A DNA stretch of 64,000 nucleotides from an uncultured Candidatus Saccharibacteria bacterium. GTDB lineage: Bacteria; Patescibacteriota; Saccharimonadia; UBA4664; CAZOQX01. The stretch is from assembly GCA_964582465.1 (NCBI GenBank), contig CAZOQX010000003.1:1115-65114 (forward strand). The letters are read 5' to 3'. The notes beneath the pieces were generated by a model. The model saw only the letters and a program-made list of their open reading frames with translations. It was not told the DNA's origin and did no database searches. Shown in pieces: positions 1-15,707 of the stretch; within the stretch, counting starts at the first letter, position 1, and the number at the start of each line of letters is the position of its first letter. A program made the position numbers and the translations under genes.

Positions 1-1684
1 CTTGGATTTGCACCTCGTTAGTTGTAGCTCGATCGGTCAGCAATCGTTCCATAGTGCCGGACATATGGAAGACTTCAAAGATACCGAGACGACCCTTGTA
101 ACCATTGTTGCACTCCTTGCAGCCCTTCCCCCTGTACAAAGTATAAGCTTTTTGGCCAGCAACTGGCAAATTTTCATATCCCAGGTCTTGACGCAAAGAT
201 TCGACTTCGCTCGCGGACTTGGGTAAGAGTGAGCTAAGAGCGTTCATAATAGAGAGAGTCTGGGCCGGTGTACTGTCGTAACTCTCGGCACAGTGCTCAC
301 AAACTTTACGCACTAAACGTTGACCAATCACTGTATTAACCGTTGAGGCAATTAGGAAGGGTTCTACGCCCATATCGAGTAGTCGCGGCAAAACTCCGGA
401 AGCAGAGTTCGTGTGAAGCGTAGAGAGCACAACGTGACCTGTGAGAGCTGCCTGTACCGCCAAGTCAGCCGTTTCACCGTCGCGAATCTCCCCTACCATC
501 ACCACATTCGGGTCTTGGCGGAGAATTGATCGTAAGCCCGAGGCGAAAGTGAGTCCAACCTCCGGGCTAACCTGCATCTGGTTAATGCCGTCCATTTTGT
601 ACTCCACTGGGTCTTCCAGCGTCACAATATTAATCGTTGGACTCTTGATTTGGGCGATAACGGCGTAAAGCGTAGTTGACTTACCCGAACCGGTTGGGCC
701 AGTCGAAAGCGTCATACCATGAGGGCGGTGAATGCCGTCGGTGATGAGGCGAAGTGATCGACCCTTGAACCCCAGCGCATCGAGGGTCAAAATCGAACCA
801 TCCTTGTCCAGCAGTCTGATAACCACCTGCTCTCCAAATACAATAGGTGCGATGGAAACACGTACGTCAATCTCCCGCCCGGCGGCTTTGAACTGAAATT
901 GACCGTCCTGCGGAATACGGTGTTCGTCGATTTTCAGATTGGATAAAATTTTGATACGAGAAATCAACGCCGCCTCCACCTCCTTCGGTAGCGTCATGGT
1001 TTCTTGCAAAATACCATCGACGCGCAGGCGCACCTTAACTTCTTTCGCCCGCGGTTCAATATGGATATCAGAAGCCCTGGAGTTGGCGGCATACTCCAAA
1101 ATAGTATTCAAGGCGCGAGTAATCGGGGCGTCCTGCACCAGATTAGAAACATTGTCTTTATTCTTCTTGTCCTCCGAAGAATTTTTCGGAGAGTTATCCG
1201 CCATTTCATTGACGGAATCAATCACAGCTGATACTTCCTGCGACACATCAGCTTTGTACTGCCCCAAAACATGCTCAACGCTGGATTCTGATACCATGAA
1301 CGGGATTAGATTGCGCCCGATCTTGCGGCTTATAAAGTCAATGGCCTGCACATTCGTCGGATCAACTGTGCCAATAGCCAAACGCCCACGCATTTCACCA
1401 AAGGGCACCGTCATGTAGCTTTTGGCCAGATCGCGAGGCATGGCAGCCAGAATATTGTCAGCCACCGTCACATTGTGCAAATCAGCATATGGGATGCCGT
1501 TAGCCTGCGCCATCACTCGGGTTAAATCCTCCTCACCCACAACTTTTTGCTGGGTCAGAAGTGCTACCAGAGTAGTTTTTTGTTTCTTGGCATCGCTTCT
1601 AAGCGTACTCAACTTTTCCTGCGTTACTAGCCCCTGCTGAGCTAAAAGCTGCTCAAGTAGTTGTTGTGTTTCGAGGGCAAGCAT
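1..1684 (-). CDS. pilB: Type IV pilus assembly ATPase PilB/GspE family (C-terminus runs off window start)
   Basis: Minus-strand ORF starting at complement ATG 1682-1684. Translation carries Walker A GPTGSGKST and the C-terminal Zn-ribbon-like CKECNNGYKGRLGIFEV motif typical of PilB/GspE. No stop before window edge. Confidence 0.85.
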   Translation of the reverse strand, partial: MLALETQQLLEQLLAQQGLVTQEKLSTLRSDAKKQKTTLVALLTQQKVVGEEDLTRVMAQANGIPYADLHNVTVADNILAAMPRDLAKSYMTVPFGEMRGRLAIGTVDPTNVQAIDFISRKIGRNLIPFMVSESSVEHVLGQYKADVSQEVSAVIDSVNEMADNSPKNSSEDKKNKDNVSNLVQDAPITRALNTILEYAANSRASDIHIEPRAKEVKVRLRVDGILQETMTLPKEVEAALISRIKILSNLKIDEHRIPQDGQFQFKAAGREIDVRVSIAPIVFGEQVVIRLLDKDGSILTLDALGFKGRSLRLITDGIHRPHGMTLSTGPTGSGKSTTLYAVIAQIKSPTINIVTLEDPVEYKMDGINQMQVSPEVGLTFASGLRSILRQDPNVVMVGEIRDGETADLAVQAALTGHVVLSTLHTNSASGVLPRLLDMGVEPFLIASTVNTVIGQRLVRKVCEHCAESYDSTPAQTLSIMNALSSLLPKSASEVESLRQDLGYENLPVAGQKAYTLYRGKGCKECNNGYKGRLGIFEVFHMSGTMERLLTDRATTNEVQIQ

Positions 1685-1690
1685 ACGGCA

Positions 1691-2764
1691 CTACACAAGA
1701 GACCTTTCGGCCAAACCAATTGCGACCGGATATTCCAAGGCCATTTGGTTCAGCTGTTCCTGCATCACTGCGGGGAAGCTGACATGAGCCCAAGGATTCG
1801 CAATCGTGACAGGCAGGCCAGTTGCATTTGCTAGGTAGGTCGGTAAATCTGGTAGGGCCGCCGCACCTCCGGTCAAAATAATCTTTTCAATTTTGACAGT
1901 TTCATCTTTGGAAGCAAAAAACTTTTCCGATTTGTCCAGCTCACTGACCAATAGGTCGAGTGACGGCTTAATGGCCTTGTAAACTTGTCCTTCTAGCTTG
2001 TCTTGCATTAGACCGAACTTTTTTGTGAATTGCTCGGCTTGTTCGGCCGCCAAACCCAACGATTGGCTCACCGCCTTGATAAATGTCGACCCACCAACGT
2101 TAATCGAGCGCACCAGCTTTGGAGCCTGTTTGTGTACTACCGCGATATCGGTGTAAAGGCTTCCGACGTCTACGATCATCACGGCCGTATCTTCACGAGG
2201 CATCAAGCTACGAATCAGCGCGACGGCGTTCATCTCCAGCGCTTCAAGTTGTAACCCAGCCCGGTCAATGATATTCATGTATTTATTTACGCCGGTGTTG
2301 GGCGCAGACACCAAAAGAACTTCCATCTGATTGGGATCTTTCGCTGGCCCCACCACTTGCCAGTCCATTTTTACTTGATCAGCCGCAGTCGGAATGTATT
2401 GATCGGCCTGCAATTTAATGGCCTTGGCTAGCTCCTGATCATTCAGTTTGGGCGTCGTGATCACAGTAGCAAAAGCCAAAGCGGAAGGAATCCCTGCCAC
2501 CACGTTTTTAGTCGTGATTTTGGCGTCCTTCACTAGCTGTTTAATAACGTCCGCCACCTTCGATTGGTCCATCGGTGAGTCGCTAGTTGATAGTCCCGGT
2601 GGCAAATCAGCCGAGCCATAGGTCACAAGCGCCGGATTACCGCCACCAGCCCGAAGCTGCACCACCCTGACGCCAGTGGTTCCGATGTCTAGACCGAAAT
2701 AGCTATCTGAGCCTTGGAATAAGTTCATTAGCCAAATCATACCATAAGCAATATGGCTTGCCAA
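1691..2764 (-). CDS. pilM: Type IV pilus assembly protein PilM (actin-like ATPase)
   Basis: 357 aa ORF with N-terminal YFGLDIGTTGVRVVQL motif characteristic of PilM. Immediately upstream of pilB. Confidence 0.75.
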   Translation of the reverse strand: MASHIAYGMIWLMNLFQGSDSYFGLDIGTTGVRVVQLRAGGGNPALVTYGSADLPPGLSTSDSPMDQSKVADVIKQLVKDAKITTKNVVAGIPSALAFATVITTPKLNDQELAKAIKLQADQYIPTAADQVKMDWQVVGPAKDPNQMEVLLVSAPNTGVNKYMNIIDRAGLQLEALEMNAVALIRSLMPREDTAVMIVDVGSLYTDIAVVHKQAPKLVRSINVGGSTFIKAVSQSLGLAAEQAEQFTKKFGLMQDKLEGQVYKAIKPSLDLLVSELDKSEKFFASKDETVKIEKIILTGGAAALPDLPTYLANATGLPVTIANPWAHVSFPAVMQEQLNQMALEYPVAIGLAERSLV

Positions 2765-2771
2765 CTAGAAA

Positions 2772-3761
2772 CTAGCGTAGTTGCGGCAATAGTTTCAGGA
2801 TATGCGCTGTTTGGCTTTGTGCGGCGAGCCAGCGCGCAAGCGTGGGCGGCTTAAGTAAGATTATTCTGGCTAAAACAACGCCGTCGACTGTTTTTTCTCG
2901 CTTCAATATGTAGGTATTACCCTTAGCCGTGACCGCACCCGTAACTAACTGACCATCAGCCACGGCTGTGACTGCGTCGGCCACCGAAATCGGCAAGTTG
3001 CCGGCGCTAACCAACATGGCGTCTCCTGTTTTAGTCGCCGATACATCCTGCGAGTAGAGCTGCTGCAAATTAGTAAAATCCGCACCTTGTTTCAGCTTCT
3101 GGAGCAAACTCGCCGCCTGATCTTGGCTTTGCTTCACTAAAGTCGGATCTTGCTGCAGAGCCAGCGTCACCTTCTGATCTAAAAGCTGCTGCTTAGCACG
3201 GTAGCTAAACTCGAAACTATCTAGTCCGTATTGCTTCTTAATGTCACTAAGCGCCTTCTTTTTACCACCACCGTCCTTGTACAAACCATCCAGCGCTTTT
3301 GTACTCTCCTGATCAGTTAGCTCGATATGATGACTGCGCGCCCAGGCCGAGATTAAGGCCTGATTAGCGGACTCGGCCATAGCCTGTTCGTTTTGCTGTT
3401 TAGCGGTGAGCTTTTGGTTTACTTTATGTATTTCGAAATATTTTGCCTGGCTGCGCAGATTCAACAAGTAATCGTAGACGCTAACGGGGGTACGATTAAC
3501 ATACGCTGCCGGGATTGGTAATATGCGGGACATCCGATAAGCGAAGTCATTCTGCCAACCCAGTAAATATATGCCGACGGTTGCAGTCAGAATGGCAAAA
3601 CCTGCCGCCACCATTAGCGCTACAGCTGTTACAGCAGTCACTTTGCGCTGAGACTTGTTCGTATGAGCCAACACAAAGCGACTCACTACCTTCGCACTAT
3701 CCCCAATGAGCGACTTAAGCTGCTCACCTGCCTCTCGAAAAGTATCGCGAATCTCGCTCAT
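2772..3761 (-). CDS. Membrane-anchored parvulin-like peptidyl-prolyl isomerase (PrsA/SurA-like), possibly degenerate
   Basis: 329 aa with one N-terminal TM segment. C-terminal region GADFTNLQQLYSQDVSATKTGDAM...GNTYILK resembles the parvulin PPIase signature. Embedded in the pilus operon. Confidence 0.45.
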   Translation of the reverse strand: MSEIRDTFREAGEQLKSLIGDSAKVVSRFVLAHTNKSQRKVTAVTAVALMVAAGFAILTATVGIYLLGWQNDFAYRMSRILPIPAAYVNRTPVSVYDYLLNLRSQAKYFEIHKVNQKLTAKQQNEQAMAESANQALISAWARSHHIELTDQESTKALDGLYKDGGGKKKALSDIKKQYGLDSFEFSYRAKQQLLDQKVTLALQQDPTLVKQSQDQAASLLQKLKQGADFTNLQQLYSQDVSATKTGDAMLVSAGNLPISVADAVTAVADGQLVTGAVTAKGNTYILKREKTVDGVVLARIILLKPPTLARWLAAQSQTAHILKLLPQLR

Positions 3762-4963
3762 TGGTTCACCACCGAATTATTTAAAGCACAGCTATTATAG
3801 ATGCCAGCGCCGTTTTGATCCGTAGACTGCGGTCCCACCTTGCAAACCGGAGAGGTACTGCTCCCCGAGAACAGGGCGTAATCAAATATACCAATCAGCT
3901 GCCCCGTCAGGGTTTTGGTCGCCACCACGCGTCGGCGGATGTCGCCCGACTGCCCTACTACGTCGATCACCAACTGCGACCCCGGAATTTGTAAATCTGG
4001 ACCGTTCGCGTAAATGCCATCCGATAGCAGCTTCACTTGGTAATCAACTGAATAGGCTTTGCCATTTACGTCCTGATCAGCCGTACTCACTAACCGAACG
4101 CGGAAAATATATCCACGGCTACGATTATTGGGCGTACCGCTGCTCGCGATTTGATACAAAACACAGCTATAATTCGCCACCGTCGTAGTGTCGAGCACGA
4201 CGGTATTTCCAGTCTGCGGCAACGTCGAAGGGCTCGGCGTCGTAGAGGTAAACTGGGTTTTTTCCACCTTCACATCCTGAGAAGTACTGCCGTTGAAAGA
4301 CACCGCTGTTAACTCGAAGGCGGCACTGGGGTCAACTGCCAATATTTTATCAACACCATTGACGCCGCTCGAGGAAGTGCGCGCCCAGCAGAAACGGAAA
4401 GCTGAATAATCCTGAAAGAGTTTGTACGCGCTGTTACAATCTGGCGGGTTCTGGCCGATTGTACCTGTAGCCGCCACAGTGGCGCTGCACTTACGTGTCA
4501 AATAACTGGTATCAAATTGTAGGCTTTGATCCTTCAACACCGAGCCAGCAAAATTAGCATTGGTGCTCGGATAAACCTTACGTTGGCGCCACGATACCAG
4601 CCCGGGCGGATCAGTCGCCGGTGGCTCCTTGGTAATGGTGTAGTTCGGCCAGTTTGAGCTGGTAGTATCGGGCAGCACGGCGTAGTCCCCTACCAGCGTG
4701 CCATTATCGTATTGATTCGGGAAAAGCGTCTGGAGCTGACTCGTCGGGTTCGCCACACCGTCCAAAGTTTTAAGAGCATCCTCAATGCCCGCCTCGGCCG
4801 CATAAAAGGCATCCTCCGAGCGATCAACTTGACTCGATTGATTCAGCTCATTAATCGTCAGCTTCGCCGCATAGCTAGTCGTTACCACCAATAAGATGGC
4901 AATAATTGACACCAGGTAAATGGCGATGGCGCCGCGCTCGTTAGTTTTAACTACTTGCTTCAT
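3758..4963 (-). CDS. PilX-like pilus assembly protein / large minor pilin
   Basis: 401 aa with N-terminal hydrophobic segment followed by AFYAAEAGIE motif typical of the PilX N-terminal domain. Ser/Thr-rich remainder. Confidence 0.55.
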   Translation of the reverse strand: MKQVVKTNERGAIAIYLVSIIAILLVVTTSYAAKLTINELNQSSQVDRSEDAFYAAEAGIEDALKTLDGVANPTSQLQTLFPNQYDNGTLVGDYAVLPDTTSSNWPNYTITKEPPATDPPGLVSWRQRKVYPSTNANFAGSVLKDQSLQFDTSYLTRKCSATVAATGTIGQNPPDCNSAYKLFQDYSAFRFCWARTSSSGVNGVDKILAVDPSAAFELTAVSFNGSTSQDVKVEKTQFTSTTPSPSTLPQTGNTVVLDTTTVANYSCVLYQIASSGTPNNRSRGYIFRVRLVSTADQDVNGKAYSVDYQVKLLSDGIYANGPDLQIPGSQLVIDVVGQSGDIRRRVVATKTLTGQLIGIFDYALFSGSSTSPVCKVGPQSTDQNGAGIYNSCALNNSVVNQ

Positions 4964-5472
4964 TATTTGCCCCTCAAGGTTGCAACTGTCGACAAGCTAT
5001 AGGCGTAGGCGTAGGGATCACTTGAGCTAACGCTCCCAGGTTGCTTCAGCCAAACTGCCATATCAACCTGAAGCGCCTCTTTGTCACCCGCTGGGGCTAG
5101 GTTTTGATAGCGCACCGCCTGAATAAATACTCCGTCGGTCACTGACACACCGTTTCTGAGGATGGCATTATTTGCAAAAGTATAATTCACGTCCGTCGCG
5201 GCTTGACCATTCAAGTTTTGGTTGTATTGCAAGGTTAGCGCAGTGGGACTGTTCACGGCGGCAGCCTTGGCGTTTCTAATGTCTCGCGCAATGCCCTCTA
5301 GTACATAGCGGCCGTTTTGCTGTACCGCTCGCTGCGTGGCACCCTTTTGCTGCAGCTTAGAGATCGAGGTGAAGGTCAGGCTGGCCGTAATCATAGCGGA
5401 TGATAAAAGTGCCATGCCAATCACCACTTCAACCAGAGTAATGCCATCTTCGCGCCTCACGACTGCGTCCAA
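4963..5472 (-). CDS. Minor pilin with prepilin-type N-terminal cleavage/methylation domain
   Basis: 169 aa. N-terminus ...DGITLVEVVIGMALLS matches the class III signal peptide (G/FTLxE) consensus. Confidence 0.6.
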   Translation of the reverse strand: MDAVVRREDGITLVEVVIGMALLSSAMITASLTFTSISKLQQKGATQRAVQQNGRYVLEGIARDIRNAKAAAVNSPTALTLQYNQNLNGQAATDVNYTFANNAILRNGVSVTDGVFIQAVRYQNLAPAGDKEALQVDMAVWLKQPGSVSSSDPYAYAYSLSTVATLRGK

Positions 5473-6011
5473 TCGGTTAAAACGGTCCGCTCAATTACCT
5501 GCCTGGTACCGTTACTCTCCGTCCAGTTCACCTGCACCTGCACGTTTTTAGTATGAGAATCACCGTTGGCATCGCAGATTGTGAGCATACGGGAATAACT
5601 TGAATAAATCTGGCCAAAGTTGACACTATTACCATTAATGTCCAAGCTAGTGCCATCGAGTGCACCGGAACTGTAGGCGGTCGGACTAGCCACGGTCGCC
5701 TTACTCCAGCCACCTGGTCCGGCCACGCTCGGACGCATTATCCACTGGTGAGCTTGATCATTGGCGCAGCCGGTGATGCCATCCAAAAATGTGGCTGTAT
5801 CGCGTAGCTCACTATCACGGTAGGCTCGAAGCGCTTCCATCTCTCGATCAGCCAGTGCCACGGCCTGACTGCGCCGCCCCGCTTCTCCACTGGTTTTGGA
5901 TGATACACTCGCAAGCGCCGCGGCTGATGTGATCGACATCGCCATTAACGCCAGCGCTACCACTAGCTCGACCAAGGTTTGTCCAGATTGATTAGTCTTC
6001 AATGCCGCCAC
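5457..6011 (-). CDS. Minor pilin with prepilin-type N-terminal domain
   Basis: 184 aa. N-terminus ...SGQTLVELVVALALMA is a class III signal peptide. Confidence 0.6.
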   Translation of the reverse strand: MAALKTNQSGQTLVELVVALALMAMSITSAAALASVSSKTSGEAGRRSQAVALADREMEALRAYRDSELRDTATFLDGITGCANDQAHQWIMRPSVAGPGGWSKATVASPTAYSSGALDGTSLDINGNSVNFGQIYSSYSRMLTICDANGDSHTKNVQVQVNWTESNGTRQVIERTVLTDWTQS

Positions 6012-6017
6012 GAATTA

Positions 6018-6671
6018 TTACTTTACTGATACGTCAATCTTACCATTAGCGGGATAAAAAATCACTGTGCCGGTAAGTGCGACGTAATCAGCCGTTAGTG
6101 TAAATGTGACGTTTTGAGCGCCCGTATAGGGTTTGCCGGTAGAGGTTGTGACGGCCGCACACGGCGTACCGGAATCATCACAGCTAGTAAAACTCTTGCC
6201 GTCCGGGGCCAGAAATGCCAGCGATATGCTACTTGGCGCCGAGTTGCCGGCATTGTTTACGGCGATAGCCGAGATCTTGAGCCCCTCGGCGGTCAAGCTG
6301 GTCGAAGCGGCGAAAACTGGATCACTAATACCCGTCTGCTGAGTGTTATCGGTAGCAACCGACGTGTTTGTAAAATCACTGCCGTTTAATAGCATCGAAT
6401 CATACTTGTTCCCGGCCGAATTGTTATAAAAATTTAGGGCCGTCCCCCGCCAATAGCAGGGCGAGGTGGCACAGGTGCCAACTTGGCCAGTGTACGAATG
6501 CACCTGGGCCTGGCGAATGTCGTTCGCGAAGGCCTTGACCTCATCACTAAAACGCTCAGTTTTGATACTTGTCCCAGCTCCCCGGATTAAAACTAACGTC
6601 AACAATCCTATGATAGCCAGAGCCACCGTAGTTTCGATCAAAGTGTAGCCTTGTTTCCTAGGTAGTATCAT
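6018..6671 (-). CDS. Pseudopilin/minor pilin (prepilin-type N-terminal domain)
   Basis: 217 aa. N-terminus ...QGYTLIETTVALAIIGLL is a class III signal peptide. Confidence 0.6.
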   Translation of the reverse strand: MILPRKQGYTLIETTVALAIIGLLTLVLIRGAGTSIKTERFSDEVKAFANDIRQAQVHSYTGQVGTCATSPCYWRGTALNFYNNSAGNKYDSMLLNGSDFTNTSVATDNTQQTGISDPVFAASTSLTAEGLKISAIAVNNAGNSAPSSISLAFLAPDGKSFTSCDDSGTPCAAVTTSTGKPYTGAQNVTFTLTADYVALTGTVIFYPANGKIDVSVK

Positions 6672-6748
6672 TCTTAAAGTCCTTGAGCTTATACTACCAA
6701 ATAAATCCAGGAATACTAAATCCGGTTTTACCTAGGAGTAGAGGAACG

Positions 6749-7180
6749 CTATCTCACCGGGAATAAACCGGCGCCTTCGGTACAAACCGAAAGTTCGAAG
6801 TCACGATTATTGGCAGATTGAGCATAGAGTACTTCATATCTACTGGCATCAGTCGTAGCCGCACAGGCACCCGTCAAGTTTCCTGACGCAACATAAGTAC
6901 CAGCGGTAAAAGTATACTTGCCACCCAGCTTTGCGTCTAAGGTCGTCACGGCCGTTTTAGCAGCCGCATTGCTCGCAGGATAACTCGCGCCGTTATTAGC
7001 CGCATACTGATCAAGCAAGCCACCCATGCGGCCAGCCTCAGTCTTACGCGTAGTGTCACGTTGGGACTTCTGGGCACTGGCAATGGCGTTAAAGACCACC
7101 AGTATGATCAGGGCAGCGATGGCTAGCACGATCACTACTTCGATTAATGTAAACCCTTTAGATTTTTTCAATTCTCTCAC
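6749..7180 (-). CDS. pilA: Type IV major pilin (PilA-like), paralog 1
   Basis: 143 aa. Short leader MRELKKSKG followed by FTLIEVVIVLAIAALI, the canonical type IVa prepilin N-terminus. Small size is typical of a major pilin. Confidence 0.75.
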   Translation of the reverse strand: MRELKKSKGFTLIEVVIVLAIAALIILVVFNAIASAQKSQRDTTRKTEAGRMGGLLDQYAANNGASYPASNAAAKTAVTTLDAKLGGKYTFTAGTYVASGNLTGACAATTDASRYEVLYAQSANNRDFELSVCTEGAGLFPVR

Positions 7181-7271
7181 CCACTTGATGCTTATGTTTA
7201 CCTATTTATACCACTTCTCCCGTCAAAAACAAAACCGGGAGCACGGCCCGGCTTAGTTTTTGACTTTCGGA

Positions 7272-7712
7272 TTATTTAACTTGGACTAGTCCGCCACCTT
7301 CTGTACAAACACTCAACTCGTAGTCGCGGTTCGTTGCTCCATTTGTGACATATAACACCTCATATATCGCAGCCGTTGTTGGGCTAGTAGCACAGGCACC
7401 GGTTAAGGCCCCATTGGCGACGTAGGTGCCTGCTGTAAAGGTGTACTTAGCACCTAGTTTAGAGTCAAGACCGGTTACAGCCGTCTTGGCTAAGGCAGTG
7501 GTAGATGGATATACACCAGAAGCATTAGACGCGGATTGTTCTAGTAGACTCACAATGCGGCCAGCCTCAGTCTTACGCGTAGTGTCACGTTGGGACTTCT
7601 GGGCACTGGCAATGGCGTTAAAGACCACTAGCAGGATCAGGGCAGCGATGGCTAACACGATCACTACTTCGATTAATGTAAACCCTTTAGCCTTATTTAG
7701 TTTCCGTAACAT
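7272..7712 (-). CDS. pilA: Type IV major pilin (PilA-like), paralog 2
   Basis: The track ORF extends to 7784. The internal start MLRKLNKAKG-FTLIEV at 7712 gives a canonical short prepilin leader. Mature N-terminal ~45 aa are nearly identical to paralog 1 at both protein and DNA level. Confidence 0.7.
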   Translation of the reverse strand: MLRKLNKAKGFTLIEVVIVLAIAALILLVVFNAIASAQKSQRDTTRKTEAGRIVSLLEQSASNASGVYPSTTALAKTAVTGLDSKLGAKYTFTAGTYVANGALTGACATSPTTAAIYEVLYVTNGATNRDYELSVCTEGGGLVQVK

Positions 7713-7790
7713 AATATTTGTGCTCACCTTTCTATTACTTATAGTGCTTACGTTTAATTTAAAGTCTTTCAGCTCAGTTGTCAACCTCCC

Positions 7791-9017
7791 CTACCTAGTT
7801 GGCCCACTGCTGACGCCCGACACTAAGCCGTAAATCGGCAGAAGCACGGCGCCGATCAGGAAGGCCACCATCACGCCCAAAACTACCATGGTAGCAGGCT
7901 CAATCAGGGTGGAGATATTTTTGACGGCCTGATCGACCTCATCTTCATAATAAGAAGCTACCTTCTCCAGACTATCGCCGAGCGTACCTGTTTGTTCACC
8001 GACCGCGAGCATTTGGCCAACCAGCGGCAAAAACATCGGGTGGTCCGTAATTAATTCCGATAGCGATGTGCCGCTTTTGACACGATTAGTGATATCTAAA
8101 ATAGCCCGCTCGAAATTAACATTATTGATGGATTGGGCCACAATAGTGAGCGCCTGCAAAATAGGCACGCCAGTTGAGATCAGTGAACCCAGCGTCCGCG
8201 CGAACCGCGCCATGTAAACTTTTTCCATCAATTGACCAAATAACGGCACCTTCGTCTTCAAGCTATCCAGCTGGCTGCGGCCAGGCGCAGATTTAATATA
8301 CATCCGTAGGCCATAGCCTGCCCCGATCAGCACTAACACGGTAATGTACCAATAGTGGGTGGTGAAATTGGAGAGAGCGAGCATTATTCGCGTAAAAACT
8401 GGCAAGGGCTTTTTGAGATCTTCATACATCTTGCCCACCTGCGGTAAGACCAAAGTTAGCATCAAGGTTGACACACCCAAAAGCACAGCCAGCACCACAG
8501 CAGGATAGGTTAAAGCGCCTCTGATTTTTGACCTAATCGCCTGGTTTTTCTCCTCCTGGTCGGCCAGCTTGAGCAAAACTTCGTCCAGATTACCGCTCAC
8601 CTCCCCCGCCTCGACCATGCTGATATAAATCGTGCTAAATATGTCGGCATGCTGAGCAAGCGACTGCGATAAACTCACGCCCCCCTCTAGACTGCTCGAC
8701 AGGCTTCGAATTATCTCCTTAAGCTTCGGGTTGGTCATCTGTTGCTCTAGCATACGCAGAGCTTTGGCAATTGGCAGGCCGGCCTTTACCATGGTGGCCA
8801 GCTGGCGGGTAAAGATGACCTTCTCTTTCGTGCTAACACGGTGCAAGATTTTATCGAGGAAAGAAGAATCTAGGCCCGGTTTTTTGGTGCCAATTTCCAG
8901 AGGAAACAACTGTTTTGCAACCAAGAGTTTGGTGGCTTCTTTTTCGCTCGCCGCCTCAACTTCGGCTTTGACCAGTTGCCCGGTCGCGTCTTTAGCTACG
9001 TAGTAATACTGCTGCAT
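7791..9017 (-). CDS. pilC: Type IV pilus inner-membrane platform protein PilC (GspF family)
   Basis: 408 aa polytopic membrane protein with two GspF-like repeats. Sits between the pilins and pilO/N. Confidence 0.85.
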   Translation of the reverse strand: MQQYYYVAKDATGQLVKAEVEAASEKEATKLLVAKQLFPLEIGTKKPGLDSSFLDKILHRVSTKEKVIFTRQLATMVKAGLPIAKALRMLEQQMTNPKLKEIIRSLSSSLEGGVSLSQSLAQHADIFSTIYISMVEAGEVSGNLDEVLLKLADQEEKNQAIRSKIRGALTYPAVVLAVLLGVSTLMLTLVLPQVGKMYEDLKKPLPVFTRIMLALSNFTTHYWYITVLVLIGAGYGLRMYIKSAPGRSQLDSLKTKVPLFGQLMEKVYMARFARTLGSLISTGVPILQALTIVAQSINNVNFERAILDITNRVKSGTSLSELITDHPMFLPLVGQMLAVGEQTGTLGDSLEKVASYYEDEVDQAVKNISTLIEPATMVVLGVMVAFLIGAVLLPIYGLVSGVSSGPTR

Positions 9018-9026
9018 CGAAGTCTC

Positions 9027-9305
9027 CTACTGAAAGGGATCACTCTTACCTAGATCGCCTGATTTCGGCGAAACATCGGGGTAATCCGTGTCCTTTGACT
9101 GGAGTTGCTGAAGAGCATTTTGATCAAAAGAGGTGTTGATCCTAGCGGGGCCGGCAGCCGGCAAGTTGCCAGATTTTTGGGACTTTTTGTGGTGCGGGAA
9201 AAGCATCCAGCCTAGCACACCGACGATTAAGACTAAAATAACGATTTCTTTTACGAGCTTGCTTTGAGCCCGATTCTGAGGCATGGCAACTTTGGGCATT
9301 TTCAT
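9027..9305 (-). CDS. Small membrane-anchored protein in the PilP position (hypothetical)
   Basis: 92 aa with a single TM helix and a Pro/Gly/Ser-rich tail. Transcribed after pilN-pilO, where pilP sits in canonical pilMNOP operons. No sequence motif recognised. Confidence 0.4.
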   Translation of the reverse strand: MKMPKVAMPQNRAQSKLVKEIVILVLIVGVLGWMLFPHHKKSQKSGNLPAAGPARINTSFDQNALQQLQSKDTDYPDVSPKSGDLGKSDPFQ

Positions 9306-9877
9306 TGCGTCCCTCCTGTAGTGCTAGCGGGCGGCGCCGCCTGATAGTAGGCTGTAATGTTTACGGCTGCCTGCACATTAGTACTCCCGGCACCATTAGG
9401 TGCCAAGTTGACGGATTGAACGTCAATATAGCGAGCAGCGTTTTCGAGTTTTTGCAATAAGCTTTGGACGCCGGCGTAAGATGCACTGATGGCTAGATTT
9501 ACGGGATAAGTAGCGACCCCTGTTGCTGCGCTGGCGGCGACACCACCCGGCGAAAACGTAGTCATTACCGCACTGCTTTTGGACGTCAAATCACTTACCA
9601 TCGCCACCAGCCTCTCCTCTTCGTTAGCTGTAGGTAGTAGGTGCAGAATTTGATCATGCTGATCTTTGACGGCGGCGTAATTTTGGCGCAGGGTCTGAGT
9701 ATCTTGATCCAGCTGCTTTAAGGCAGTGATTTTATTGTTGTAATCTGCGATCTGCTGCCCATCCTTCCCGGCTGTGTTTAAAATTGGCTTAATGATAAAG
9801 AAGCCAACTACGGCCGCAGTTGCAAGCCCAATCAATAAATACAGCCCGACTAGGTTCAGTAATTTGTGATCTTTCAT
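9302..9877 (-). CDS. pilO: PilO-like pilus assembly protein
   Basis: 191 aa. N-terminal TM segment, then a coiled-coil segment and a C-terminal domain. Follows pilN with a 4-nt overlap. Confidence 0.55.
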   Translation of the reverse strand: MKDHKLLNLVGLYLLIGLATAAVVGFFIIKPILNTAGKDGQQIADYNNKITALKQLDQDTQTLRQNYAAVKDQHDQILHLLPTANEEERLVAMVSDLTSKSSAVMTTFSPGGVAASAATGVATYPVNLAISASYAGVQSLLQKLENAARYIDVQSVNLAPNGAGSTNVQAAVNITAYYQAAPPASTTGGTQ

Positions 9878-10476
9878 TTCGCCAAACCTCCGGTGGGATA
9901 AACATAGGTTGCGGAGAGCGAAAATGCCACGCGGGTTCCTTGGACGCTGGCTCCACTAAATGCTACGGAGTTAAAGTAGATTTGTCCTCCCGCATTCGCC
10001 ACACTGGTCGTACTTGGGTCGGGTGTTGGACTAGACTGCTTAAGCGCCGCGATGGCTGTGCCCACTTCATTGTAGGAACCAGCCGTGCCGGCAATGACAA
10101 CTTTCTCGCCATCGACATTAAGCGATTGCAGTGTGACCCCCTTCGGCAAAAGATCAGTCACCCGCTTAAAGATGGCCGAAAACTTATGTTGATTGCTAAA
10201 CAGCCCGTTCAATTCTTGTAGGCTAGCCTGGACAGCCAGGGCTTCTTTACGAAATGCGACGTTATCCGGTGAATTCACCTGAGCGTTGAGGGTGGTATAG
10301 CTATTTTTGGCCGAAGTCAGCCGCACTTTCTGGACGCCCAAGTACACGCCAGCAAGAACTGCCAAGCCCGCCACTAAAATTAGCCAGCCAACAATACTTG
10401 CCGTGGCTATCTTCTTAAACTTCTCCTCACGCTGACGGTTAAGGACTAAATCTGGTAGTAGGTTTACCTTGATCAT
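9874..10476 (-). CDS. pilN: PilN-like pilus assembly protein
   Basis: 200 aa. MIKVNLLP N-terminus followed by a TM helix is the hallmark PilN start. Confidence 0.65.
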   Translation of the reverse strand: MIKVNLLPDLVLNRQREEKFKKIATASIVGWLILVAGLAVLAGVYLGVQKVRLTSAKNSYTTLNAQVNSPDNVAFRKEALAVQASLQELNGLFSNQHKFSAIFKRVTDLLPKGVTLQSLNVDGEKVVIAGTAGSYNEVGTAIAALKQSSPTPDPSTTSVANAGGQIYFNSVAFSGASVQGTRVAFSLSATYVYPTGGLAK

Positions 10477-10520
10477 GGTTTATGCCTAAAGCTTACACTA
10501 TCCCGCTTATGCTAACAAGT

Positions 10521-13500
10521 TTAATTACTTGGTACCGCCTCATTCCACACCGCCGGAGCACTATTAAGAGTACTGAACCATGGCGGCGGGTTGCTCACCA
10601 CCGTGCCATCGTAGACGAAGTTCTCGGATGGGTTGATGTCAGGATCTAGTTGTGTGCCAGGCTGGCGCTGTAAGTTGAATGATGAGGCAATTATCAAACC
10701 GTTGAGTGTCAGCGGTTGGTCGACATTGACGCGATCATTGTTCCCCACTAAGCTGGTGCCCGAGCTAAATGCACCATTCGCAAAGTAGTTGCCGGCTAGA
10801 TTACTCACGCAATCGTCGGAATTGAAACACTTAACGATGATATTGCCGGTCACAATGAATCCAACTGACGTCTGCTGGCTGCGATCAGTACCGCTATAGC
10901 CGTTATAAGAGACATCACCGTTTACAATTAGATCGCCATTTACAACTATTGTGCCCGCTCCGCCTGCAAAACTGAGCGCGGTATGGGTAGCAGGATCGCC
11001 TAAGTTCAAATTACCATTAGCATAATAGGTTCTCCCGTTGGCGAGCGTAAAGGTGTCGTCCATCGTATAGTAATTTTGCCCGCTGACCTTAGTGAGGTTC
11101 GTGGCCTTCCCCACAATATTATTATTGTAATTGGTCTGCCCCCAGATGGCGTAAATCGGATTATTAGCATTGTCATACGTTCCCGAATTGCCGGTGTTGA
11201 GAGCGTAGGGGCTGAAGGCTTTTCCTTGACTAGGATGACCCGATACGCCTGGGCTGGTGAAGTCAAAGTGATTAATTAGTCCTTTGGTGTACAAGAACGC
11301 CGATTGCGCCAGGGAGTGCGCGAAGTAGCTATCGATCTTCCCGCCAGCGTAAACGTCGGAATTTTGGAAAGATATGGTCGGATTATAAATGGTAGCAACC
11401 CCGCGGTCGGGCTTGGCAGCACTATCCGATTCTATACCGTAAAGCACATTATCGGGCTTGGAGGCGCTCACGTCGCGCGATCCGAGGTCTCGGGTGTGTC
11501 CCTTAAAGGTACTCTCGTAGCGAGCGCGCTGGACGTTACTTGACCAACCCCAGTCGACATTGACTAAACCGTCCTTGGTGCCATCGTATGTTACGTCGCA
11601 TTCCCCATCGAAGTTAGCGGGACAATTGGCCGTATCTTCCTGAAGTAATTGGCCAGCGCCGGTGTAGTACTTGGTGTTGGCGGCACTCGCGGTCAGGTTA
11701 AAGAAACCGCCGGGCCAATAGGTTGCCGTCACATTTTGAGTGCCAGACTTGGTGTCATCAAAGCCCGTGATTACCGGCTCCACCACCTGCGTGTCATAAA
11801 TCATGCGATTCGTATAAAGCGGATCGGCGCGATCAAATGCCCAGCTTACTCCAGCGCCGTGAGCAAGCGGTGTCGAATCCCCCGAGTTATCCATCGTAGT
11901 AACGGTGGTCGAGTCCTGCCAATAAGTGGGGAGGTCGGCCGTTGCTGGGTCATTATCACCATCGGCCCAAGTCGGGTTGGTCTTGTTAAATCCCCCACCA
12001 AAGTAACTATCTTGGCCTAACACTTGACCTTGAATCGTGGCATTGGGATTCAGCCACCCCCACTTGGTCTCTCTTCTGCCCAAGTAGTAGGTAAAGTTGC
12101 TGACGATAAATTTATTGCTAATCTTTAGCGTCACGGTGGTACCAGCAGTCCCGTCGGCAGTTCCAGGGCTATAGGTGAAGCCGGCCGCGCCGCTGGCATT
12201 GGTTGCACCCCCCAACTTCACGCCGATCGGCGTGTCGTGAGCAGCAGCGTTTTTGGTTGGATACCAGTGGCCCTTGTCGTCTAGTTGCGACCAATTCACG
12301 TACTCATCCCACTTAAGCTGCGCATTATCGACGTGTGTAATGCCCGTAGTGTAGGTCAACGGTTCTTGGTTATTGGCCTTATATTTGAGTGTGCCGTTGT
12401 CCTGACTGTCCTGCAAAAGCGACGTCACAGTCGTAGTGCCCCACGATTTCAGTGGCAAATCACTTACACCCAAGCCGCCCTTCAAAATATTGTCTGGATC
12501 AAGCGTAAAGTTAGTCGGTACATCAGTATTGTCCGAATCAGCCTGATTGGTGAAGTTAGCATCGTTAATTGAGGCACTATACGTACTCGGGAAAAGTTGT
12601 GGATTTCGAACGTTATCCCAAGTGTTGGGCTTTGGCGAGTTATCGGCCTTAACTGGTCCAGCACTATTATCGGGCAATGACTGCCGCGGATCCGCTCCCT
12701 TATTGGTATCGCGCTGCAATAGATTTTTGTCGATGCCGCCCTGCCACTGAACGCCGTGGTCGCCCACCACTGAGACATCATCTGAGTTGTTAGCCGGCGA
12801 TTTAATTCCTTGGGCGTTAATATGGAGGTTAGAGATCTCGACAGCGTTGATGTGATTACTGCCGCCGCAGTCCCATACTTGTTTGCCGTCAGTATAAAAG
12901 TAGCTGCCGTCTTGGCAGGCGATGCCGCCGTGGCGGGGGTCAAAAGCATTGCTATCGCTGGTCGAGAAGTTCACGTCGCGAATGGGTTGCCACTTATTGC
13001 CACCAGGAGTGGACGAGCCGGACGTCACGGTGCCGTCGTTCTTCGGTACGTAAGCGAGCGGGATGCGCTGCAAGCAACCGGTGGCCGCAAACGAAGCCGG
13101 GCAACCAATCTCCGCCTTGTTATTAAAGACACTCATGCTGTTTAGGTCCGTATCGAGATTTTCGCTGGTGGTATTGGTATCCCCAAAAGCCGATCCCCAA
13201 GTACCAGCCAGCCAGAAGTTAGTCGAATGATCGTTGCCTTGGTATGTTCCTTGATCGGTTTTGCCGCGATTGCCCGCATCCGGCCACATGTAGGCCTGCA
13301 GGTTAAAGAGCGGATATTTAAAGTTATCGCGCACGAACTGTAAAACGGGGTGAATGAAGTTGGCTAAGTAGACTTTCGCTGGCGTGTTTAGAGATTTAAT
13401 GGTGATAGCGCAGGTGTCGCCGAATAGGTCATATACACCGGCCACGAGACTAGGCGTACCCATCTGGAAGGTTAGGCGATAGACGCCGGGGGTCGCTGGT

Positions 13501-14993
13501 GTTACATAGCTCGCATTCGAGAAAGTAGTAGTCTGATTGGGGCCGATAGGTGGACTATTAATCGACTGAGTCGTAGGTCCAGTTACAGGAGTGTCATCAG
13601 TACGAACTAGCTTATACGAGCTGGTCCAAGCCACATCGCCGGTATTCTTTAATGACTGGGTAATTTTTACAGTCGACCCCGGCGCGACAGGGTTCGGAAT
13701 AGAGCTTTGGATGCTTTGGCAGTTTGAGTTCTGGGAGCAAGTATCGTTGTAGGTTTCACTATCGTACGGGATCCAAATTTGCGGATCGTTATTGTAGCTA
13801 ATGTTGTGCCATACCCACATAAACTGCATACTATACGCCGCGGCAAAGTCTAGAGTTTTAGTTTCACCGTTGCCGCCAATAAATTCAGGGTATTTATCCG
13901 GATTCTGATCGGCAACTGCCGTCTTTACATCATAGCCCCGCCGATGAGCACTTCCCCCATTGAAAATATCTGGAGTTATCTTCCACGGCCCGGGACTAGT
14001 CCCGCCAACGTCGCGATAATATAAATCAAAGTAGATTTGTGGGTTAACCGGAGAAGAGTCGCTAGCCCCGTCCGCATCCTGCCACCTCAGCTCGTTATAA
14101 AGAATAGGATAAACCTCTTTTTGCGACAAGCAGGGGGTTGCAAACGGAATATAGAGGTCGTAGGTTCCACTCGTGTTGGTCGTATCAAGCGTGATAGGCT
14201 GATCACCTTTATCAAACCTCGCCCACAAGCCCACACGGTTCCCACCACAAGGGAAATTTTGATTTGCCCCCTGATTATTTACATCTTGTTGCATGCAACC
14301 ATCAGCTTGTGTCCCGGAGCTATAAGCTTGGATCCTGAAGTTCGCCCACCGGTCGTGACCAGGCTCAACGACCACACTGTCATCTGTGTTCATCGCCGAA
14401 ATATACCCAACTGCAAGTCGGTATACATAGTATCCGTTGCTCTTATTACTAGGCGATGATAAACATCCGCCATCGCCGTAGTTGTCAGAGTCGGTATCAA
14501 ACTTAATAGGGTCGCTCCACTGACCCGGGCTTGTAAAGAATACGGACCCTTGCTTGCCCTGAGAGATACATTTTTTGGCGTTATTATTATCGTCGAAGAT
14601 TTTGTAGGATTCGTCAGCGTTGGCGGGGGTAAAGAAAAATTTCATGCTTTTGAAATCTTGGTCAGAAGAACTTCCAGTACCTGTCCGAATTCTTATGTAG
14701 GTATTGTGGGGATCTTTGAAGTATAGCTTGATGTAAGATACGGGCGTATCGATAGCTCGACCTGTAGTGCCAGCATTGCATTGGTGGTTTGGATTGGTAA
14801 AGTAGCCTGAACATGCTTGGCTAACATCGACTTGAATATCGCCGTTCCCTCCATCGACTGTTTGATTCGGTAGAACATCATTTACTCTTACAAAGCTAAA
14901 GTCCGGGGCAGCCTGGGCTGGCTTAACCAAACTGAACAGGTTAACCGGCAGAAGCACCGCCAAAATAGTTAGCCACCTAATAAGCTTAGCCAT
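10521..14993 (-). CDS. Giant secreted surface protein (1490 aa), function unknown; candidate adhesin with beta-helix-like C-terminal region
   Basis: Uninterrupted 4.47 kb ORF with N-terminal signal peptide (LLPVNLFSLVKPAQA). Very Gly/Thr/Asn/Ser/Asp-rich. C-terminal NGDLIVNGDVSYNG...VGFIVTGNIIV repeats suggest a beta-helix. Heads the T4P locus. Confidence 0.7.
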   Translation of the reverse strand: MAKLIRWLTILAVLLPVNLFSLVKPAQAAPDFSFVRVNDVLPNQTVDGGNGDIQVDVSQACSGYFTNPNHQCNAGTTGRAIDTPVSYIKLYFKDPHNTYIRIRTGTGSSSDQDFKSMKFFFTPANADESYKIFDDNNNAKKCISQGKQGSVFFTSPGQWSDPIKFDTDSDNYGDGGCLSSPSNKSNGYYVYRLAVGYISAMNTDDSVVVEPGHDRWANFRIQAYSSGTQADGCMQQDVNNQGANQNFPCGGNRVGLWARFDKGDQPITLDTTNTSGTYDLYIPFATPCLSQKEVYPILYNELRWQDADGASDSSPVNPQIYFDLYYRDVGGTSPGPWKITPDIFNGGSAHRRGYDVKTAVADQNPDKYPEFIGGNGETKTLDFAAAYSMQFMWVWHNISYNNDPQIWIPYDSETYNDTCSQNSNCQSIQSSIPNPVAPGSTVKITQSLKNTGDVAWTSSYKLVRTDDTPVTGPTTQSINSPPIGPNQTTTFSNASYVTPATPGVYRLTFQMGTPSLVAGVYDLFGDTCAITIKSLNTPAKVYLANFIHPVLQFVRDNFKYPLFNLQAYMWPDAGNRGKTDQGTYQGNDHSTNFWLAGTWGSAFGDTNTTSENLDTDLNSMSVFNNKAEIGCPASFAATGCLQRIPLAYVPKNDGTVTSGSSTPGGNKWQPIRDVNFSTSDSNAFDPRHGGIACQDGSYFYTDGKQVWDCGGSNHINAVEISNLHINAQGIKSPANNSDDVSVVGDHGVQWQGGIDKNLLQRDTNKGADPRQSLPDNSAGPVKADNSPKPNTWDNVRNPQLFPSTYSASINDANFTNQADSDNTDVPTNFTLDPDNILKGGLGVSDLPLKSWGTTTVTSLLQDSQDNGTLKYKANNQEPLTYTTGITHVDNAQLKWDEYVNWSQLDDKGHWYPTKNAAAHDTPIGVKLGGATNASGAAGFTYSPGTADGTAGTTVTLKISNKFIVSNFTYYLGRRETKWGWLNPNATIQGQVLGQDSYFGGGFNKTNPTWADGDNDPATADLPTYWQDSTTVTTMDNSGDSTPLAHGAGVSWAFDRADPLYTNRMIYDTQVVEPVITGFDDTKSGTQNVTATYWPGGFFNLTASAANTKYYTGAGQLLQEDTANCPANFDGECDVTYDGTKDGLVNVDWGWSSNVQRARYESTFKGHTRDLGSRDVSASKPDNVLYGIESDSAAKPDRGVATIYNPTISFQNSDVYAGGKIDSYFAHSLAQSAFLYTKGLINHFDFTSPGVSGHPSQGKAFSPYALNTGNSGTYDNANNPIYAIWGQTNYNNNIVGKATNLTKVSGQNYYTMDDTFTLANGRTYYANGNLNLGDPATHTALSFAGGAGTIVVNGDLIVNGDVSYNGYSGTDRSQQTSVGFIVTGNIIVKCFNSDDCVSNLAGNYFANGAFSSGTSLVGNNDRVNVDQPLTLNGLIIASSFNLQRQPGTQLDPDINPSENFVYDGTVVSNPPPWFSTLNSAPAVWNEAVPSN

Positions 14994-15074
14994 TAGAGTT
15001 ATTGTATGAGCTTATCCACTACCAGTCAAACCCCTTAAGCTTATTGACATCATGACTGCTCCGGTAGACTATTA

Positions 15075-15707
15075 ATGTTAATGGCTAAGCGCAAAAGGAA
15101 AATGACCAGACTACTCCCATCGCTCGGCAAGCTCTCTAACCTTTCTTTCGTAGCGATCGTATGTGGCGTGGTGACTTTTGGAATACTTGCCTACTACGTG
15201 GTACACGCGCTCTCTTATCACAGAATCGGCATACTACAAGAACACGGCCAAACTTTTTACTACACCAACCCCACAACCGGCCACGTAACTGCTGAAAAAG
15301 TTATTCATCCTGATCAAGGTGATGGCGGTAAACTGTCATGTAGCAATACTTGCTGGCTCTCGGCTAAAGCAAGTTCAACCTTCCAAGACGCCTGGACTGG
15401 TCCAGGGTTTCACGTAGCGTCCAGCGGCGTAAACTCAACTAACAAGAATCAACGCGCGTGCTTTGTTATTCGGGTTGCTCCAGGTGCATCCTCAGCAATA
15501 GCAGGAATATCCGTCGATGGGACACCAGTAGGACAATCTACATCTGTTACAAAAGATTTCAAGTGTTATTGGCTGAACTACACAGTCAAAGCAGGCCAGA
15601 CCGGCCTCAGCTGGACCATCCATGTTCAGTCTGGGCAAGTTCAGATTGACCGTGTAGAACTGTGGCAGGGCGGTGCTAGTGGCAAGAGTGTTTTTGTAGA
15701 ACTGTAG
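15075..15707 (+). CDS. Secreted/membrane-anchored Cys-containing protein, tandem paralog A
   Basis: 210 aa with N-terminal hydrophobic anchor. C-terminal ~125 aa are identical to paralog B. Conserved CSNTCW, CF and C motifs. Confidence 0.6.
   Translation: MLMAKRKRKMTRLLPSLGKLSNLSFVAIVCGVVTFGILAYYVVHALSYHRIGILQEHGQTFYYTNPTTGHVTAEKVIHPDQGDGGKLSCSNTCWLSAKASSTFQDAWTGPGFHVASSGVNSTNKNQRACFVIRVAPGASSAIAGISVDGTPVGQSTSVTKDFKCYWLNYTVKAGQTGLSWTIHVQSGQVQIDRVELWQGGASGKSVFVEL
15334..15705 (+). repeat. Direct repeat copy 1 (372 bp, 100% identical to 15958-16329)
   Basis: Read directly: tgtcatgtagcaatacttgctgg...gtgtttttgtagaa occurs twice with a 624-bp period. Confidence 0.9.

Follow-up and report, generated by a model that had tools for sequence, protein, structure and literature searches.

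A type IV pilus locus of probable T4P-1 kind with a rearranged gene order in an uncultured member of the Saccharimonadia

This study concerns a type IV pilus (T4P) locus that lies at the start of a 64,000-nucleotide (nt) stretch of DNA from an uncultured Candidatus Saccharibacteria bacterium (contig CAZOQX010000003.1), a stretch which as a whole is referred to here as the window. Positions 1-14993 of the window hold 14 closely packed reading frames, all of them on the minus strand, which in the order of transcription encode a giant secreted protein, PilN, PilO, a protein of 92 amino acids (aa), PilC, two pilin paralogs, three minor pilins, a PilX-like protein, a protein resembling peptidyl-prolyl isomerases (PPIases), PilM and PilB (Table 1). 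This content and order had been proposed in an earlier note made from the DNA letters alone, and both were confirmed by the reading frames and by profile annotation of the window proteins with Pfam and NCBIfam. The type IVa machinery proteins PilB, PilC, PilM, PilN and PilO all score above their Pfam cut-offs, and the N-terminus of PilN, MIKVNLLP, can be read as the PilM-binding motif. Overlaps of 1-16 nt or gaps of less than 10 nt lie between many of the genes, and wider gaps are confined to the surroundings of both pilin genes, the 3′ side of the giant gene (44 nt) and the 5′ side of pilM (31 nt).

The note had called the locus complete, a description that does not hold within the window. 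The window start truncates pilB, which lacks about 36 C-terminal residues in comparison with the PilB of a closely related locus (L001 in the comparative sample described below), and no homologs of pilT, pilD, a secretin or PilP were found within the 64 kb. Because pilT and pilD directly follow pilB in the closest relatives (L001, L002 and L006), both genes probably lie just past the window start, in the 2.6 kb of the 66.6-kb contig that fall outside the window.

Table 1. Features of the pilus locus and its surroundings; positions are those of the window unless another locus is named.
Feature	Position	Strand	Evidence and remarks
pilB, extension ATPase	2-1684	-	Pfam T2SSE 1.4e-121, MshEN 4.6e-13; 74% identity to L001 PilB (597 aa)
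pilM, actin-like cytoplasmic alignment protein, 349 aa	1691-2740	-	Pfam PilM_2 8.4e-54
Membrane-anchored PrsA/PpiD/SurA-like protein, 329 aa	2772-3761	-	Pfam SurA_N_3, Rotamase_3 and Rotamase just above cut-off
pilX/GspK-like large minor pilin, 401 aa	3758-4963	-	N-terminus NERG/AIAIY, without Glu5 (Tyr at +5); AFYAAEAGIEDA motif
Minor pilin, GspJ/PilW-like, 169 aa, EDG/ITLVE	4963-5472	-	N_methyl 7.5e-4; weak NCBIfam GspJ, prepilin-peptidase-dependent protein
Minor pilin, GspI/PilV-like, 184 aa, QSG/QTLVE	5457-6011	-	N_methyl 3.1e-6; weak NCBIfam PilV, GspI
Minor pilin, GspH/FimU-like, 217 aa, KQG/YTLIE	6018-6671	-	N_methyl 3.8e-6; weak NCBIfam GspH, GspI
Pilin paralog 2, 143 aa, GTG start, SKG/FTLIE	6749-7180	-	N_methyl 4.8e-8
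Terminator-like hairpin after pilin paralog 1, A-tract before, U-tract after	7222-7264	-	Best terminator-like site in scan
Pilin paralog 1, probable major pilin, 146 aa from ATG at 7712	7272-7712	-	N_methyl 1.2e-7; leader MLRKLNKAKG/FTLIE
Promoter-like site TTGACA-17-TAAATT, between pilC and pilin paralog 1	7756-7784	-	Consensus match
pilC, platform protein, 408 aa	7791-9017	-	Pfam T2SSF 5.4e-64, 2 repeats
Single-pass membrane protein, 92 aa	9027-9305	-	4-nt overlap with pilO; family found after pilO
pilO, 191 aa	9302-9877	-	Pfam PilO 3.2e-11; 4-nt overlap with pilN
pilN, 200 aa	9874-10476	-	Pfam PilN 2.8e-8
Giant secreted protein, 1490 aa	10521-14993	-	Sec-type signal peptide MAKLIRWLTILAVLLPVNLFSLVKPAQA/AP
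Conserved C-terminal beta-solenoid module of giant, residues ~1317-1490	10524-11045	-	
Immunoglobulin-like (Ig-like) domain of giant, residues 436-527	13413-13688	-	Pfam N_BRCA1_IG 4.5e-7, 30.8 bits (cut-off 28); sole Pfam match
Promoter-like site TTGACT-17-TACAAT	15001-15029	-	Top promoter-like score in scan; 8 nt upstream of giant ATG
TPR-like protein upstream of giant, examples from other loci	L013 3895-4422; L016 7511-8035; L017 2078-2599; L045 4217-4729		

Class-III signal peptides with Gly at -1 and Glu at +5 occur in five proteins (4963-7712), all within the locus. The two tandem pilin paralogs are 72% identical as proteins, and their first ~50 codons (~150 nt) are almost identical in DNA before the genes diverge, which suggests a recent duplication or a gene conversion limited to the region of the N-terminal helix. 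Paralog 1 has two Cys in its C-terminal part, and its ATG is preceded by the Shine-Dalgarno-like sequence AAAGGTGAG. The three minor pilins and the 401-aa protein are transcribed in the order 217, 184, 169 and 401 aa, that of a canonical GspH/I/J/K-like block, the NCBIfam hints to these types being weak. A hydrophobic pilin-like N-terminus without Glu5, a large size and the last place in the H-I-J-K block mark the 401-aa protein as one of PilX/GspK type, and its motif ERG...AFYAAEAG(I/V)E is common to 28 homologs whose genes close the minor-pilin block in other loci. It matched no Pfam family at E<=0.1 and no PilX_N or GspK profile, and its single NCBIfam match was that of its N-terminus to tapirin (0.013). 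Among the families that the earlier note had expected, PilM_2, PilN, PilO and Rotamase were thus recognised in the locus, while PilP and PilX_N were not. The 401-aa protein fits the description of PilX1 in the saccharibacterium TM7x (PMC11623550).

The attribution of the locus to a saccharibacterial pilus, made in the earlier note, agrees with its homologs: 573 relatives of PilM were detected, the best of them 53-78% identical, and those that carry a name are nearly all titled Saccharimonadia or Saccharimonadales. For the comparison of gene orders we used a sample of 55 pilM-centred loci (L001 and following), in which the window proteins were mapped by iterated local profiles. The usual order in the Saccharimonadia, found in ~40 loci, is giant-pilM-pilN-pilO-small protein-pilB-pilT-pilC-pilA-pilD-minor pilins-pilX, in some cases headed by a TPR protein, and it agrees with the published description of the T4P-1 locus in TM7x and Southlakia epibionticum (PMC11623550, PMC10633639). 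The window order, giant-pilN-pilO-small protein-pilC-pilA-minor pilins-pilX-PPIase-like gene-pilM-pilB (followed elsewhere by pilT and pilD), was encountered in only three other lineages, L001, L002/L004 and L006, the PilM proteins of which are 78%, 61% and 59% identical to that of the window, respectively. The note was right to regard the separation of pilM from pilN and pilO as non-canonical and, judged from these gene orders, it is a real, derived state of a small clade. Within this rearranged clade, the PilM, PilB and PilC core is 59-78% identical and all the exported parts 28-61%.

Some other loci of the sample deserve a separate mention. L043 carries two pilM genes, one before pilN (767-1807) and one before pilB (9977-11014), and has no PPIase-like gene; we considered it as an evolutionary intermediate and set it aside, since the two copies are merely 47% identical and the locus may combine two systems. 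The same pilus locus, with near-identical PilM, PilN and PilO, is present in L053 (titled Roizmanbacteria) and in L054 and L055 (titled Gammaproteobacteria, both titles looking doubtful), and in these three it lacks the small gene after pilO.

The best described systems of this kind are the T4P-1 of TM7x (TM7x_00415-00475) and the T4P1 of S. epibionticum (SEML1_0104-0116), which belong to the same phylum-level group as the window; the orthology of the window genes to those of TM7x is inferred from the published description of the TM7x locus. These T4P-1 loci are essential and power twitching (PMC10633639, PMC11623550) and, as the earlier note stated, type IV pili are documented in Saccharibacteria for host attachment and twitching (PMC9894109, PMC11623550, PMC10633639). 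The component set common to loci of the window kind and to both cultivated organisms comprises PilB, PilT, PilC, PilM, PilN, PilO, PilD, a small major pilin and several minor pilins, and the TM7x and S. epibionticum loci likewise encode a large pilin of PilX type that has no canonical prepilin signal (PMC11623550). In contrast to both, pilM of the window adjoins pilB instead of pilN, the small gene is separated from pilM by pilC and the pilin block, pilX is followed by a PrsA-like gene, and the pilin gene is present as two tandem paralogs. In the main text of these two publications (PMC11623550, PMC10633639), neither the giant encoded upstream nor the small protein encoded after pilO is discussed.

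Contrary to the earlier note, which took both the small protein and the giant for atypical additions, the two are near-universal in the pilus loci of the Saccharimonadia (47 and 43 loci, respectively). Homologs of the 92-aa protein, 82-96 aa long, are encoded directly after pilO in 47 of the 47 Saccharimonadia loci that include this point, and the stop and start codons of the two genes usually overlap. In the members of this family, the N-terminus is short and basic, a single membrane helix follows, and the tail of ~50-55 residues has the pattern V.VE.V..I...FD...L..L.D..V.DF..P.DL..GLGN..PFG, which in the window version ends in GDLGKSDPFQ. In L036-L041, the small proteins after PilO (for example, L036 10835-11095) have a Cys-rich tail, ..PQ.C....TCG.., in place of GLGN..PFG. 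The 92-aa protein itself gave no Pfam, NCBIfam or PDB match. Like the PilP of diderm type IVa pili, it is small, membrane-tethered and extracytoplasmic, and its gene directly follows pilO. Unlike PilP, it has no lipobox, no beta-sandwich (its ~55 extramembrane residues are too short for one), no match to the Pfam PilP model and no secretin partner in the window. The idea of a small protein in the PilP position therefore stands as far as the place after pilO and the membrane topology are concerned, but not as homology to PilP, which was negative in all profile tests. Because the gene order with pilO is conserved and coupled, the most economical reading would be that the PilMNO alignment complex has a fourth, lineage-specific subunit in this protein.

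The giant protein is, as the note had it, secreted (a Sec-type signal peptide is present) and encoded by the first gene of the locus. Its residues ~540-1490 are common to ~15 full-length homologs, and the first ~500 residues (~30-540) are variable, containing the Ig-like domain in the window, a PD40 propeller in the homolog P0124 and a sugar-binding domain in P0132. The only widely conserved part is formed by the C-terminal ~170 residues. When 1.84 billion representatives were searched exhaustively with HMMER, this module was recovered in 280 clusters, always at the extreme C-terminus, in proteins of 149-2292 aa. Of the fetched loci, 43 encode a match to its hidden Markov model (HMM) next to the machinery genes, including L036-L042, the PilM proteins of which are the most distant from that of the window (47-50% identical) and where two module genes often occur in tandem. 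With the exception of L042, the family members have Sec-type signal peptides, and none of these is prepilin-like. Word-indexed homolog searches with the giant and with the PPIase-like protein returned nothing beyond the query.

Some further observations were made on this family. After the signal peptide, many giants carry a short motif, (R)GYF(T/Q/E)N..D..G, which in the window (residues ~60-75) reads CSGYFTNPNHQC; because of this N-terminal GYF motif and the C-terminal module, the family has conserved segments at both ends. A membrane-anchored TPR-like protein of ~175 aa (MPQVE...) is encoded directly upstream of the giant in 18 loci of the usual order and is absent from the window (examples in Table 1), and the pair of TPR and giant genes is duplicated in tandem in L033, L045, L047 and L048. 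Finally, a 737-aa protein encoded at 4332-6545 of L056, adjacent to a housekeeping divIC-PPIase-ftsEX group, has a match below the cut-off (20.5 vs 28 bits) to N_BRCA1_IG, the rare Ig-like domain also seen in the window giant.

The AlphaFold2 model of the C-terminal module, built from a 30-sequence alignment, is a confident beta-solenoid, with a predicted local distance difference test score (pLDDT) of 83.7 and a predicted TM-score (pTM) of 0.82, and the model of residues 540-1490 (951 residues) is mostly beta, with a pLDDT of 67.7. The best structural matches of the solenoid include Thermus ComZ (PDB 6qvi) and the Caldicellulosiruptor tapirins (6n2b, 6n2c, 4wa0). In a Foldseek search with the 951-residue model, ComZ was the top match (E 5e-3, probability 0.97), and the rest of the giant found no match. 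For ComZ, a role as a DNA receptor at the tip has been proposed (PMC6561018); the tapirins, whose genes lie near the pilus locus, are adhesins (bioRxiv 10.1101/359786). On the evidence of these models, the relation of the giant to both is one of resemblance and not of membership, beta-solenoids being generic. In contrast to ComZ, the giant and its relatives are of Sec type and have no pilin scaffold, and the solenoid alone matches; no pilin N-terminus, class-III signal peptide, NCBIfam tapirin match or PilY1 propeller was detected in the giant.

The C-terminal domain of PilY1 is a beta-propeller (Pfam Neisseria_PilC). Like the PilY1/PilC proteins of proteobacterial type IVa pili, the giant is a large Sec-exported non-pilin encoded in a pilus locus, variable in its N-terminal region and conserved in its C-terminal domain. 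Unlike PilY1, it does not match that propeller family, the domain being modelled as a beta-solenoid, and its gene is found beside pilM or pilN in the family, not after pilX. On account of the variable head, the conserved C-terminal module, the tandem duplication and the constant linkage to the pilus, the giant would fit best as a pilus-associated surface adhesin.

The third protein is the atypical addition that the earlier note took it for, since homologs of its gene were found only in the rearranged clade, that is, in 4 of ~50 Saccharimonadia pilus loci. In this protein, ~40 cytoplasmic residues precede a membrane helix (~41-69), after which come a SurA_N-like domain, a parvulin-like domain in degenerate form and, last, a C-terminal helix; the family has an invariant G(I/V)YxLGWQ motif. 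Its Pfam scores exceed the cut-offs given in brackets for SurA_N_3 (29.8 bits, 27.2), Rotamase_3 (28.0, 22.5) and Rotamase (25.7, 21.7), and Rotamase_2 (22.2 bits) remains under its cut-off of 27. The parvulin-type PPIase announced in the earlier note is thus upheld at the level of fold and HMM, where the curated Rotamase cut-off is passed narrowly, but both catalytic His are missing. In place of the first and second of them, the window protein reads TYILK and ARIILLK, L001 reads FYILR and VRLIEIS, and L006 reads MYILK and AQVILFE, so that the pilus-linked copies have Tyr at one position and Ile, Leu or Val at the other. The canonical relative L056 has GYHIIK and RVRHILIK, and PrsA also has GYHIIK where the window protein has TYILK. 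The GDLG motif is degraded as well in the pilus-linked copies, L056 keeping GGDLGYF, and in L002/L004 the whole parvulin domain has been cleanly deleted, with both flanking segments retained. This comparison used a profile of five sequences from which the membrane helix was left out.

L056, the closest canonical relative, was recovered by a metagenome scan with a four-member alignment; its protein has 308 aa and a Rotamase score of 93.8 bits, and the gene stands between divIC and ftsE-ftsX, a housekeeping context of the cell envelope. An exact-sequence lookup of the window protein among contigs gave no match. The ABC ATPase and the permease encoded at 49817-51717 (plus strand) of the window were tried as the ftsEX of a divIC-PPIase-ftsEX copy and rejected: the permease is of MacB type (MacB_PCD and FtsX domains), the two genes form a MacB-like efflux pair and no PPIase gene lies nearby. 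In the pilus locus, the PPIase-like gene and pilX overlap, by 4 nt both in the window and in L001 and by 1 nt in L002, which suggests that expression of the PPIase-like gene is coupled to that of the largest pilin. Within the clade, the protein is 28-37% identical, the pace of the exported components, vs 59-78% for PilM.

In PrsA, SurA and PpiD, the chaperone function resides mostly in the flanking module, and some parvulin domains are inactive; PpiD has an N-terminal membrane anchor. The window protein resembles PrsA of Bacillus and PpiD and SurA of Escherichia coli in its SurA_N-type domain and in the parvulin domain inserted before the C-terminal helix, its PDB matches are PrsA, SurA, Pin1 and PpiD, and its N-terminal membrane anchor recalls that of PpiD. 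Unlike all three, it has lost both catalytic His, its gene lies inside a pilus operon, and in its family the rest of the parvulin domain precedes the His-bearing strand instead of following it; from SurA it also differs in scoring 28.8 bits against an NCBIfam SurA equivalog cut-off of 394. As both catalytic His are lost, and the parvulin domain of L002 is deleted with its flanks kept, the protein is most likely a PrsA/PpiD-like chaperone or holdase derived from a housekeeping foldase, rather than an isomerase. The parvulin loss in L002 fits the chaperone function known for the flanking module of PrsA and SurA, and the SurA_N_3 match, the N-terminal membrane helix and the C-terminal segment that flanks the inserted parvulin domain are the features to be expected of such a chaperone.

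One further protein touches both the chaperone and the giant. L042 (3196-9951) encodes a 2251-aa member of the giant family that bears the C-terminal module. In place of a signal peptide, the N-terminus of this protein is long and cytoplasmic and leads into a membrane helix, which is followed by a SurA_N-like segment. This segment is detected with the helix-free profile (E 4.2e-6) and is the only clear case, L039 being marginal; with Pfam, no match was obtained in these giants. A fusion of chaperone and giant modules is a possible reading of this sequence.

The calls of transcription signals are evidence at the level of consensus. Of the two promoter-like sites listed in Table 1, the TTGACA-17 site before pilin paralog 1 recurs in L002 and L006, there too between pilC and pilA. 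The hairpin after pilin paralog 1 has a 17-pair stem with a centroid energy of -23.5 kcal/mol (z = -1.9 vs shuffles), and no counterpart of it was found at the corresponding position in L002 or L006; the other intergenic regions of the locus fold no better than shuffles. The strong internal terminators that the earlier note had considered as a sign of separate operons hence come down to this one convincing hairpin. The locus probably comprises more than one transcription unit. A promoter and a hairpin around pilin paralog 1 are what is commonly seen where a major pilin is highly expressed from within a larger locus, and they do not split the locus functionally.

Divergent from the giant gene, the window holds two tandem paralogs of 210 and 192 aa (15075-15707 and 15756-16334, plus strand). 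Both proteins have a membrane or signal segment at the N-terminus and are identical to each other over the C-terminal ~125 residues (SCSNTCWLSAKASSTFQDAWTG...SGKSVFVEL), and neither matches a Pfam family.

Each of the three accessory proteins admits an alternative explanation. The 92-aa protein could be a true PilP in an extremely reduced form, made of the anchor and the PilN/PilO-binding linker up to the ..PF. motif, whose beta-sandwich was lost together with the secretin. The slot after pilO and the topology (a membrane anchor and an extracytoplasmic tail) are the same, and the end of the tail, GLGN..PFG or KSDPFQ, resembles the RRDPFAP motif of the genuine PilP used for comparison, which is encoded in the Solibacteraceae locus L052 with a secretin downstream. 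However, homology to PilP was rejected by a Pfam scan of 36 members of the small-protein family, none of which matched the PilP model even at E<=10, by a PDB profile search and by hhalign, which aligned the family profile to the L052 protein over the 7-residue motif alone, at a probability of 0.5%. Moreover, there is no lipobox Cys, the N-terminus being a plain membrane helix, and the motif is missing in L036-L041 and has a 2-residue core that could easily be convergent, so that we consider a reduced PilP quite improbable. The giant, for its part, could be a structural part of the envelope, a wall-spanning conduit or anchor that replaces secretin and PilP, with the small protein linking it to PilN and PilO. 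In the 43 loci it adjoins the genes of the alignment complex and not those of the pilins, no secretin is present in the window, the Sec-exported protein has a conserved C-terminal module, and the membrane-anchored TPR protein often found upstream recalls the pilotin-like TPR proteins. Nevertheless, a length that varies more than tenfold (149-2292 aa), variable N-terminal domains and tandem duplication in some loci are more in keeping with a host-contact protein that diversifies than with a fixed part of the machine, and the structural role appears rather unlikely to us.

As for the PPIase-like protein, it could be a general housekeeping PrsA-like foldase that was placed in the operon by chance and has no role in the pilus, perhaps an active isomerase or a general secretion chaperone. 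The location of its nearest canonical relative between divIC and ftsEX agrees with this, as do its presence in merely four of ~50 Saccharimonadia pilus loci and the lack of a second PrsA-like copy within the 64-kb window, by which it may be the sole one. Yet the gene keeps the same slot after pilX, with overlapping or abutting frames, across lineages whose PilM proteins are 59-78% identical, the protein diverges as fast as the pilins, and the loss of the His in three lineages and of the domain in a fourth is unexpected for a sole extracytoplasmic isomerase; a chance placement is therefore doubtful. A pilus locus with three accessory proteins devoted to it is the reading that we prefer, and several points weigh against it. 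The giant could belong to the envelope or the wall and have nothing to do with the pilus fibre, and the sole similarity of the small protein to PilP is the 7-residue motif, replaced in L036-L041. A parvulin without His is not thereby proven inactive, and the chaperone gene may be the only PrsA-like gene of the genome (64 kb of which were checked), with a general role in secretion and merely relocated. In one of the alignments the Par10 and Pin1 reference sequences were entered by hand; the PrsA and Pin1 segments of the PDB match and L056 came from the searches. Finally, a SurA_N-like segment was found in none of 149 representative module-bearing proteins, so that the lead of a fusion comes from one protein.

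Taken together, the window probably carries the main type IV pilus locus of an uncultured Saccharimonadia member, a system of the T4P-1 kind with a clade-specific rearranged order and three accessory proteins acting as we propose here. Saccharibacteria have ultrasmall, single-membrane cells. The 92-aa protein, translationally coupled to pilO, would be a lineage-wide fourth subunit of the PilMNO complex, with the gene position and topology of PilP and without its secretin-binding domain, as would fit a cell that has no outer-membrane secretin. The giant would be a surface adhesin associated with the pilus, on which it would dock through its conserved C-terminal module, and a functional analogue of PilY1, ComZ or tapirins from outside those families. 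The 329-aa protein would descend from a housekeeping membrane-anchored PrsA-like foldase captured between pilX and pilM in this clade, and it would serve as an extracytoplasmic holdase or chaperone for large exported parts, the PilX-like pilin, the giant or both, without prolyl isomerase activity. Two starts of transcription are probable, one upstream of the giant and one at the conserved promoter before the first pilin gene, and read-through past this gene would be attenuated by the hairpin.

The novelty of the locus lies in a variant of gene order with respect to the published T4P-1 loci, and not in a new kind of system. In a wider and more tentative view, which we put forward as a possibility of lesser weight, the pili of the Saccharimonadia would have two lineage-specific undescribed parts, an alignment subunit of ~85 aa that replaces PilP where no secretin exists and solenoid-docked giants with hypervariable host-binding modules displayed on the pilus or next to it, and a dead PrsA-like chaperone would have been recruited in the clade of the window to fold or hold them. 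Cultivated Saccharibacteria cannot live as epibionts without type IV pili (PMC10633639, PMC11623550), and the locus bears on how this pilus machine is built. Three leads follow from it: a conserved small protein as candidate partner of PilN and PilO; a giant family with a conserved anchor and a variable head, present at nearly every pilus locus, as a candidate determinant of host specificity; and a natural experiment, the loss of the His and then of the whole domain, which indicates that an operon-embedded “isomerase” may work as a chaperone. The leads on the small protein and the giant are directly testable in the genetically tractable TM7x and S. epibionticum.

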